Shown: positions 1,034-14,808 of the stretch, piece after piece
How positions within the stretch are numbered: position 1 is the first letter of the stretch
Layout: every line of letters begins with the position of its first letter
Assembly: GCA_001929475.1 (NCBI GenBank)
Contig: LXFE01004361.1
Coordinates: forward strand, 1 to 32,520
Length of the DNA: 32,520 bases
DNA from: Neolecta irregularis DAH-3
Taxonomy: Eukaryota
Direction: 5' to 3'
The notes under the pieces: generated by a model
What the model saw: only the letters and a program-made list of their open reading frames with translations
Databases searched by the model: none
Told to the model about the DNA's origin: nothing
Program-made: the position numbers and the translations under genes

Positions 1034-2751
1034 CTAGGAACAAAACTGTGCTTGCTCTTCCTCAACAGTCAATCTCTTGTCCTTGGCATCCAAGGCAAGC
1101 GGGCGCCCCTCAACCCGCTCATAAATATCCCGGACATCCTCCGTAGTCGTCTCAAAGTGGCTCGTCGCATCATAGCTCTTCGACACATACACATGGTCCT
1201 TGCACCCGTCACTTATCGGCTCAAGAATGTCCTTGACTTCAATAAACCTGCAATCAGCGTCTCCCCGGCTCCCCGTCCATACTTGTCAAAGATCGCCCCA
1301 AGGAGATTCAGTCCCGCCTGGATTTCCACATGGGGGTTGTCGGTCTCTACAATCGTAGACACAATCGCAAGCCAGTGGTCTTTGGCGCACACATTATGCG
1401 CAGACGAAACACTCGCAATGTAAATGTCTACAGTCAGCCTCCGTTTCTCCATCCACCTACCATGCTGTCGACCAACCTGGTTTTGAGGAATAATAATCTG
1501 AACAGAGTCCAGACTGTCCGTGTTGGGAATAGGGTGCGTAAGAATGCAGATCGCTCGAATGACAGTTCCCACCTTTTTGACCTTGTCCGGAAAGTAGCTC
1601 GGGTCCCCAATTATCTTCTTGGCTTTGGCAACCTCATCCCCGCTTCGCACTCCAACTGCAACCCCATTCTCATAAACAACCCCGTCAATCTTCTTGTTGA
1701 GCATATAAGTACTGCCATAAATAGCAGCCAGTCTACATATTAGCAACAGCCCCTCAAAAACATACCGTGCAAAGCCTTGGGGCAACTCTCCCAATCCATA
1801 CAGAGGATAGAGGAAACATGTCTTTCCACCATAGCGTTGCACAGAATTGAGATACAGCAAGATCCGCTCATACGCTTCCTTTGCAGGCTTGTTGATGTAC
1901 GTATCATCAAGGTACAACGCCATTGCATGACCAATAAAGTCTTGAGTGCCCCTCTCAAGCCCAAACTTTTCATAGACCTTGGCCATGGAATCGACAACAA
2001 GGTTTAATCCTGCAGCGTTCAGCTTTGAATGAGGACATCTCACCTTGATGAGTCGTCGAATCCTCTGGCCTGTAGTTCCCAACAAACTCGAAAAACTTCT
2101 TCATTCGTCTCTTCTCAAACATCCCCATGAGTGGAGACCGAACAGCCTTGTGTCAGGGAATCTCACAACACACCATACCTCCATCTCCGATGCAGGTACC
2201 TTTGCAATCTTGCCGTCTCGATAAACATAACTTCCTGCAATTTGCTTGAATTCGAGGTATCTTGTAACATCCGTGTGCTGATATCAGAGACCAGTAGTCC
2301 GACTCACGTACCACGAGCATGTTTGTAAGATCTCCATTAGCCATAAGGAATTTTGGGATGAGATCAATTGCCCAATCTCGATCTCTCCCAAGAGATGCAG
2401 GGGGACCTTGATGCTTTCGAAACTTTTGAAAAATCTAGAGTTGTTAGAATTGAACGTGAATAGGAGAAAGCGCGCTGGCATCAAAGGAGCGAGAAAAAGA
2501 AGACATTGGAAACGACTTACTTGAGTTAGGTTCAAACTGGCACTGTCCCTGCCTTTCAGCAAAAAGATTTCAAGCGGAAATCGCACCCCCCGTAGTATTC
2601 ATTCTCATCCATATGCAAGACCTTCTTGCCCCCCACACTCAACAGCCCAGACAGGACACATTCAGTCAATCCTGTCCCTGCGGATGATCAGAGCCTTGAC
2701 TGAAGGACCGAATGTCCTACCAAGTACAATGATATCATATTCTTCATCCAT
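1034..2751 (-). CDS. GDI1: Rab GDP-dissociation inhibitor, 9 introns
   Basis: [61 protein letters not shown]; frame restored by GT-AG introns of 32-43 nt and one of 86 nt. Confidence 0.97.
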
Positions 2752-10112: not shown

Positions 10113-10355
10113 TAAACTTGACGATGTCGTGGACAGTTTTAACACTTAAGTTTGAGGGGAAGAGCTTATTATAGTCGGGTTTTTTGGTCTCTGTGGTCTA
10201 TCTCTCATGGTTTTGTAAAACTTGTCGATGAAAATACTTATGTTCATCATTTATTACAATGTACTGTCCACCTGCTACGTCACTTGACTTGGGATTTCAT
10301 TCCCCACTCAAAATCAAGTTTCCCCTAAATTTTCCCAATCACTACCACGGTAGTT

Positions 10356-12277
<1,922 letters not shown>

Positions 12278-13428
12278 GTTCTTGGCTTAGTGAACAGAAG
12301 ATAAACATGAAGATGGAGTTTGGCGAAACTCGTTGAAGTAACACTATTCTAATGCAAGCCCACTGGAATTACACAGGCTGATCAATGCCACCCAATTCTT
12401 CTGTGGAACGTAGGGATAAGAATTATAAACAAGCTATCGTCTACACTGAATGGATGATAGATAGATGATAGATAGACATATATACTAAGATTCCCAAAGT
12501 CATGGAATGATGTATAAAAGCTTGCCCATGAGGAATGCATTCAATCCTTCAAATGCGATTTTCTAGAGCTTGTTGATCGCCTCAGTCGAAGCTGGTGCCT
12601 TTCTGCATAGACTACATAGAACATAGCGACGAGATCTGATTACCCACATTGAAGTTCGAGTCATTAGTGATGAACTCACACACCAAAGTATTACTTCTCA
12701 CAAAAGCATAATGAGAATAATATGTGGAATTAGCCATAGTTCATCCTGGATAAAGGTTGTGCCTCATTGATGACTATGAAAGACAGCATAGCCAAATTCA
12801 ATGGGGTCGACTCGTAAAATGGATATTTCTTGTCTGCTAGACAAGGATTCTTTCAATGTCTCTAAGGCAGAATTCCGAAGAATGAATCAGAGCCATCATA
12901 GATCACATAGCACGACCATGGTCCTAGGTCTGGAAAGCGAATGATCGGAAGAAGCTTGGCTTTCTTCCATGCCAGTCAATTCAAACGTCTTACCACTTTC
13001 CCATCATAACAAAACTCTGTTCATATACACCAATTGTAGTGAGAAATCATATTGGGATGATACAGTAGAACCTGGATATAATGAATGTGGCGTTCAGGGG
13101 TGTTGAATTTGGTATGAGGATTCGTTCTATCATGATATCACGTCCTTATACAAATTGATTTTGTAAGGCGGTTGGATTCGTTATTACGAGGAATTCCCTG
13201 TACGGAGGTTACGAACAACCAGGCTCTGTTGTGCATAGTGTGTCTCAGCTTCTGAATGTCTGCGATAGAACCATCCTTAATGTTCGGGAAAGACCGGGAT
13301 CGGGAAAGGCGGAGAAGCTCATATGCGACAAGGTTGCCATTGGCCCCTCCCAAAACCAGCTTCAACATCCATATCTCCTTGCTCTGCTGCTTTTTGCAAA
13401 TCATCAATTCAACTCCACGTCAATTACA

Positions 13429-14808
13429 ATGGGTGTCTCAGGTGGGTCTCATTTATTGTTAACATGAGCTTTACTTTATTAGATATCGTACCGAACGGTG
13501 TTCTTACTGGCGACAATGTTCTCAAACTTTTTGAATATGCTCGTGAAAAGAAGTTTGCTCTTCCTGCTGTGGTACATCTCTGTCTTAGTGTCATCCTACT
13601 GAGATAAATCTCAGAATGTTACTTCTTCATCAACCGTCATTGCTACTCTGGAAGCCGCAAGGGATAAGAAATCTCCTATTATCATTCAAATCTCGCAGGG
13701 GGGTGCTGCTTTTTTCGCAGGGAAGGGGATCTCAAATGCCCATCAAAAGGCATCTATTGCAGGTTCTGTTGCCGCTGCTCACTTCATCCGGGCGATTGCT
13801 CCATCTTATAATATTCCCATAGTCATTCATACAGGTATCTTATCACCTATCTGGGTATACTAAAGGTGCAGACCACTGCGCAATGAAACTTTTGTCTTGG
13901 CTCGATGGCATGCTTGATGCCGACGAGAAGTACTTCGAACAGCATGGGGAACCTCTTTTCAGGTGTCAATTATAACAAATTTTCTTTCAGAGCTAATTAT
14001 CCAGCTCGCATATGGTTGATTTTTCTGAAGAAACAAAGGAAAAGAACATTGAAATCACCAAGAAATACCTTCAGCGAGCTGCTCCTATGAAACAATGGCT
14101 CGAGATGGAAATTGGAATTACCGGTATATCACCAAATCGAAATTTTGGCTCACTTGAAGGAGGTGTAGAAGATGGCTGTGACAACACAGGCGTGACAAAT
14201 TCAAAGCTTTATACCCAACCGGAAGATGTCTGGGATGTCTACAGCACTCTCACTCATGTATCTCCTTACTTCAGCATTGCAGCTGCTTTTGGAAATGGGA
14301 AGATTCAATTTAAAGCCTTGTATGCTAATTTTCAAGTTCATGGAGTATATATTCTAAAAGTTCGTCTTGCCCCAGAGCTTCTTGAGAAGCATCAAGAATA
14401 TGCCGCCCATAAACTCGGCAAAAAGGGAAAGCCTTTGTAAGTGCTATTATCTACGTATCGTTGATATCAAGATACCTGGTAATGCACGGAGGCTCCGGCT
14501 CAACTCATGAGGAATTTCGAACTGCCATTAACAATGGAGTTATCAAGATCAATCTGGACACTGATCTCCAATATGCTTATTTGACTGCATGTACTCGATG
14601 TCTTCGGGTCTGATATGTATAGGGTGTGCGTGATTACGTACTCGCCAAGAAGGATTATCTCATGACTCAATGTGGGAACCCAGAAGGAGATCAGTTACCA
14701 AATAAATCGTACTATGATCCTCGCGTCTGGATTAGATACGGCGAGCAGACTATGAAGGTTCGAGTTGCTCAAGCTCTCGATGACTTTGGCGCTGCTGGGA
14801 CTTTGTAA
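13429..14808 (+). CDS. FBA1: Class II fructose-bisphosphate aldolase, 8 introns (one GC-AG, one apparent GG-AG)
   Basis: HTDHC, EMEIGITGG, FGN-VHG, HGGSGS, KINLDTD, YYDPRVW. Confidence 0.93.

Follow-up and report, generated by a model that had tools for sequence, protein, structure and literature searches.

A probable GG-AG spliceosomal intron in the zinc-ligand motif of the class II fructose-bisphosphate aldolase gene of Neolecta irregularis

How does an aldolase gene keep its metal-binding motif when the intron that divides this motif begins with GG? The question is raised by a 32,520-nt stretch of the Neolecta irregularis DAH-3 genome (GCA_001929475.1, contig LXFE01004361.1, positions 1 to 32,520; hereafter the window), in which positions 13429..14808 (+) hold a class II fructose-bisphosphate aldolase gene, FBA1 (PF01116), with nine exons, eight introns and a spliced product of 356 aa from an ATG start placed by homology. 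Intron 6, at 14298..14336 (+), divides the Val codon of the GNVHG motif in phase 1. Exon 6 (14160..14297 (+)) ends with FGN and the first base of that codon (AATG), and exon 7 (14337..14436 (+)) starts TT CAT GGA. The His codon at 14339..14341 (+) aligns to E. coli His226 (1DOS), which upholds the earlier assignment of this residue as a zinc ligand; in its available text, PMC11194214 gives His110, His226, His264 and Glu174 as zinc ligands and Asp109 and Glu182 as catalytic residues. A preliminary description of the locus proposed that a GG donor is used, that a tolerated insertion is translated or that this copy is decaying.

The intron is as described: 39 nt (31% GC), starting GGAAGA (14298..14303 (+)), with a GCTAAT branch-point motif at 14324..14329 (+) and an AAG acceptor at 14334..14336 (+). 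Its length is a multiple of three and it is free of stops in the coding frame, so that retention would give GN-GKIQFKALYANFQ-VHG and no premature stop. The A of the motif, 9 nt from the intron end, is the probable branch point, and AAG also ends 6 of the 23 other scored introns. The GG at +1/+2, present in both the window and the contig from sequencing run X1 (below), falls outside the canonical U2 definition of GT or GC, and the remaining features are those of U2-like GG-AG introns, namely G at +1, the full consensus AAG at +3..+5 and a CTRAY-type branch motif near the 3' AG. Pairing of U1 on the exon side is poor, with ATG instead of CAG and no AG at the donor. The aldolase gene and the PGM and GDI genes of the window together have 24 introns with a median length of 38 nt (22 GT, 1 GC and 1 GG), a sample (2/24 non-GT) that was chosen through the GG finding itself. 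Their GT donors are degenerate, and only 2 of the 22 carry the AAG at +3..+5 that is present in the GG donor of intron 6. Minor (U12) introns have an RTATCCTT-type donor, and a U12 identity was rejected for intron 6, whose donor is GGAAGATT. No GT-AG or GC-AG intron at the site restores the GNVHG motif, and in the scanned range the frame can otherwise be kept only with a GC 24 nt upstream, which removes AAAFGN. An FGFR-type parasitic donor, for which the available part of PMC4176328 describes a canonical GT 6 nt upstream, was also rejected, given that no GT occurs closer upstream than 14258, a distance of 40 nt.

Two sequencing runs cover the stretch, X1, which is DNA-like, and X2, from a different sample (S2). 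X1 gives a single contig over the whole stretch (depth 423, no other letters) with G at 14299, so that in X1 this base is not really a T; X1 is possibly the source of the assembly, which makes this a re-assembly check rather than an independent sample. The relevant X2 record (record 2) is an 831-nt contig (depth 357, no other letters, no gaps, matched pieces totalling 831 nt) that lacks all six introns in its span: introns 3 (13835-13871), 4 (13963-14004), 5 (14124..14159; 36 nt, 3n and stop-free) and 7 (14437..14471; 35 nt), which are GT-AG, the last intron, 8 (14587..14622; 36 nt), which is GC-AG (GCATGT), and intron 6, all on the (+) strand. Introns 1 (13442-13482 (+)) and 2 (13572-13614 (+)), both GT-AG, lie outside the contig. 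The 39 nt of intron 6 are skipped exactly, restoring GNVHG, and the option of a used GG donor is thereby supported. At the joint, 14296/14336, an ambiguity of 1 nt allows GG..AA or, one base further, GG..AG, and neither offers a GT. Across the 831 bases X2 does not differ from the exons of the window, and intron bases are invisible in it. The label of X2 is 'DNA?', it comes without a library record, neither run is registered as RNA, and the RNA nature of X2 is read from its content. We take it to be cDNA because every intron is absent, cover is missing just outside the gene and the assembly holds no intronless copy; PMC13263728, in its available text, calls its own RNA-seq the first for the species, which adds caution on this point.

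Protein-to-genome alignment from homologues alone places the same six introns as well as intron 2. With canonical donors only, none of the 119 homologues gives an intron at the site of intron 6, and with GG permitted all 119 choose 14298-14336. The margin over an in-frame insertion is 3 points and depends on analyst-set penalties, so that the alignment does not discriminate splicing from retention. The public protein model for the species (P0001, OLL21726.1) contains errors at three introns of the gene: introns 5 and 6 are retained and intron 8 is mis-spliced.

Scanning metagenomes for aldolase genes that have a G after FGN-G returned four loci, of which three (L012, L014 and L015) are fungal aldolase genes and one (L013) is unrelated. 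L014 and L015 are the same in sequence and L012 is 93% alike locally, leaving two distinct versions. All three carry a 79-nt intron, GTAAGC..TAG, that shares its site (FGN G|T) and its phase with intron 6. Because the same-site intron of another fungus starts GTAAGC, intron 6 is most likely old and its GG would be derived, by a T-to-G change at +2 in the Neolecta lineage. The ancestral reading stands on one outside lineage, and parallel gain may be the alternative origin.

Genome-wide pattern counts served only to nominate further loci, given that none rises above its reversed-pattern control and that such counts are no proof by themselves. The pattern AG|G[ACG]AAGT..CTRAY..YAG matched 33 times (GC 12, GA 17, GG 4; control 39), AG|GTAAGT with branch and YAG 9 times (control 16), and a looser GG pattern gave 16 rows (control 27). 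The textbook GT form is thus less frequent than its GC or GA version, in counts not above control. Lengths of 32-44 nt were found for 9/9 GT, 11/12 GC, 10/17 GA and 1/4 GG matches. In a Pfam scan of 11 loci, the exons match adjacent parts of one profile in six, comprising four GC donors (L048, L043, L047 and L036), one GA donor (L031, importin beta) and one GG donor (L052, RIC1). Four loci matched on one side (L025, L026, L051 and L028) and one on neither (L044). Four GA-AG candidates lie near locus base 1503 on the matched strand, in an alpha/beta hydrolase (L026, splitting G-H|S-M-G-G), importin beta (L031), a cullin (L051) and a WD40 protein (L025); only that in importin beta has both-sided support.

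The intron in RIC1 (L052:1503-1539; G000:C3527:18501-18537), placed by homology, is GG-AG and 37 nt long, not a multiple of three, so that its removal is required. On the profile, the flanking exons cover positions 103-131 and 134-162. The donor is placed at GG by 16 of 20 homologues and at a GA three bases upstream by two, with no intron from the other two, and no GT or GC near the GG keeps the frame. Unlike that of intron 6, this donor is preceded by AG. A near-identical database protein (P0362) is out of frame at the GG intron. The other three GG matches of the first pattern (L041, L045 and L049; 25, 47 and 29 nt) were dropped for want of a convincing frame, leaving one of four upheld, and the 16 looser rows contributed no further one: L064 repeats the RIC1 intron, L055 can be read through without a break in frame and in our reading appears coding, L059 lacks Pfam support and may have a GT at +7, and the other rows offer no convincing frame. 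Because the looser pattern adds no solid case, GG appears to be much rarer than GC or GA. Sequence comparison nevertheless supports a second GG donor, in RIC1, and GA and GC donors elsewhere in the genome. We found no published work on non-canonical donors in Neolecta in literature coverage that excluded the genome paper and its supplements; in one supplement file of PMC7072748 Neolecta and GG-AG are absent, and its tables possibly exist in another form.

A GG donor could also simply mark a decaying pseudogene whose function is carried out elsewhere. The protein has lost conserved residues: the E181 equivalent is V, an F before HGG is M, and in the loop directly after intron 6 KPGN is replaced by ILK with one residue deleted. 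The spliced product differs at 10 of the 151 columns classed as conserved, compared with 0-8 in 112 homologues, although the columns were defined as conserved in >=95% of those 112 and are biased in their favour; constraint may hence be somewhat relaxed. A paralogue might be missed in an assembly fragmented into 4542 contigs, and a search for class I aldolase gave no match when its positive control matched nowhere either. Against this, the frame is intact, the X2 contig is transcript-like, and in the alignment to 1DOS the equivalents of D109, H110, E174, E182, H226 and H264 are all retained. A PF01116 search of the assembly matches at this locus only, so the second FBA gene that an explanation by full retention would call for was not found, and a spliced contig is present; genes for PFK and FBPase are in the genome. 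Identity to Saitoella (0.68) is close to that of Pneumocystis (0.69), with 0.76-0.77 for three other fungi, and the neighbouring PGM is likewise at 0.68 to Saitoella, versus 0.69-0.73. The changes are those of mild acceleration, as far as sequence can tell, and not of decay, and we regard the chance of a pseudogene as close to negligible. The gene resembles other fungal class II aldolases (E. coli FbaA type, PF01116) in its identity of up to 74% and its zinc and catalytic residues, and differs in the altered loops GGVEDGCDN and GNVHGVYILKVRL; at window 14160-14180 it reads GGVEDGC for GGEEDGV and at 14345-14375 YILKVRL, one residue shorter, for the YKPGNVKL of most relatives, letters that the X2 contig confirms. 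The best reading is probably a working, single-copy aldolase gene in which intron 6 is not exonised. PGM adjoins FBA at window 10350-14808, and in Lipomyces arxii, L. starkeyi and Dipodascopsis tothii the two genes likewise have locus tags that lie near each other, hinting at old synteny. Database proteins for PGM (P0123, 89% identical) and GDI (P0241, 97% of aligned positions) point to a close relative in public data; an aldolase from that relative is not among the 120 matches listed, the best identity being 0.74.

X1 and X2 are different samples and the intron is unseen in X2, which leaves room for a genotype difference: the X2 individual would have GT, and the sequenced individual would carry GG as a private, leaky or null allele. 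According to the available part of PMC12805630, donors with +2T>G or >A yield less full-length transcript in human minigenes than GC donors do. Such a genotype difference seems improbable, given the identity over 831 exon bases, the lack of a second allele in X1, the status of the gene as the only class II aldolase found, and the separate GG donor in RIC1 and GA donors in the assembly. That a large share of transcripts retains intron 6, with the 13-residue insertion beside the zinc ligand being waste or lowering activity, would be in keeping with a weak donor, a stop-free 3n intron and the mobile His226 loop noted in the available text of PMC11194214. Contigs also drop rare forms and measure neither splicing efficiency nor retention. 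However, only the spliced path was assembled and no contig retaining intron 6, the X2 depth in the bin 14298-14358 (134.7) is just what the exon cover accounts for, 3n lengths occur in four of the eight introns, canonical ones among them, and an insertion in FGNxHG is found in 0/119 homologues. A translated insertion as the main product thus loses ground, and substantial leakage is in our judgement a slim prospect. Slimmer again is the chance that the X2 joint reflects reverse-transcriptase template switching, or that the pre-mRNA is edited back to GU. We know of no established mechanism for G-to-U editing. For template switching, the end repeat is 1 nt only and folding is weaker than in shuffles (z +1.35), with no hairpin; an artefact is likewise disfavoured by branch and acceptor motifs of the normal kind and by the coincidence with the ancestral intron site. 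Both processes are named among the possible causes of non-canonical sites in the available text of PMC7072748. Intron 6 is therefore very probably a true spliceosomal intron in a functional gene of single copy, an old intron whose GT donor became GG through a change at +2 and which is still precisely removed.

The best reading is that this U2-like GG-AG intron is spliced by a spliceosome tolerant at +2. The pairing motifs of the snRNAs are canonical: we found one U1 with the usual ACUUACCUGG end, a U6 with ACAGAGA and a U5 with the usual loop GCCUUUUAC. The U6 gene (L006; G000:C1963:269-417, - strand) contains a short GTAAGT..CTGAC..TAG intron just after ACAGAGAAGAUU. No variant U1 with a compensating base was seen among the 41 of 209 candidates that were scored, and a DNA search yielded one copy, a coverage that does not prove absence. 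As no compensating U1 was found, tolerance would most likely reside in proteins. The major (U2) spliceosome of Neolecta may define its introns of ~38 nt mainly through branch point, acceptor and length, and may require of the donor little beyond G at +1 and partial pairing at +3..+5, such that GT donors would erode and a donor other than GT would survive when +3..+5 stays AAG. The likeliest form of protein tolerance would be a spliceosome biased towards the second step, to which we give roughly even odds as the protein part. We prefer it by analogy with yeast, for which the available text of PMC10578475 describes a second step limited by U2A, a change at +2, and relief of that limit through second-step alleles of Prp8 or Cef1. 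Intron 3 of GDI (window 2435-2520 (-)) has, at 86 nt, double the usual length, and its donor is a near-perfect GTAAGT, which is what a need for stronger donors in long introns would predict. The broader proposal, which we hold to be as probable as its opposite, is that the spliceosome in effect reads only the +1 G. Old introns in essential single-copy genes would then drift to GC, GA or GG and stay constitutively spliced, GA and GG together would make up at least 1% of introns, the U1, U5 and U6 motifs would be unchanged, an upstream AG would be unneeded and the full-consensus context would be commoner in non-GT than in GT donors.

GG donors are already known in human, a copepod and Ganoderma, and what sets intron 6 apart is its ancestral site and a donor with no upstream AG. 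The GA and GG introns of the copepod Eurytemora affinis (PMC5714493), with GG donors in 5 of 297 introns of ten genes, are alike in that their GG donors are required and have A at +3, the 5' end of U1 is unchanged and gene models are broken at such introns. However, the Eurytemora exon must end AG, whereas aldolase exon 6 ends AATG, and the Eurytemora introns were recently gained, whereas at the site of intron 6 a distant fungus also has an intron, with GT as its donor (one outside lineage). The same paper quotes 32 human GG donors, 0.014% of sites. Rare human U2-like GG-AG sites and leaky +2T>G alleles, as covered by the available parts of PMC4176328 and PMC12805630, resemble intron 6 in dinucleotides, GT-to-GG origin and help from consensus elsewhere; these human cases are mostly alternative or of low efficiency, whereas the motif divided by intron 6 belongs to the active site of the one aldolase found, and removal of the intron is the sole assembled path. 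Among fungi, GG-AG is already recorded in the curated annotation of Ganoderma lingzhi, where the available text of PMC11590231 lists 20 sites (0.022%) beside 97.6% GT-AG and 1.85% GC-AG. It is a trace class there, whereas 2 of 24 introns of three housekeeping genes are non-GT in Neolecta, in a sample chosen through the finding, and Ganoderma is mostly GT-AG, whereas the full-consensus donor context in Neolecta is more often non-GT than GT, in counts not above control.

The U at +2 is regarded as nearly obligatory, and acceptance of GG and GA donors was left unexplained in the copepod paper (PMC5714493). An ancestral GT intron in a glycolytic active-site motif that has become GG and is still exactly removed offers a clean natural case, and suggests a lineage in which the tolerance at +2 can be followed back to proteins of the spliceosome. 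If only the +1 G is indeed read, Neolecta would be a natural, genome-wide counterpart of the yeast second-step suppressor alleles, and would point to changes in Prp8, Cef1 or proofreading factors. Given the errors of the public aldolase model at three introns and of the RIC1 protein at its GG intron, claims of gene loss in this early-branching ascomycete that are based on GT/GC-only annotation need rechecking.
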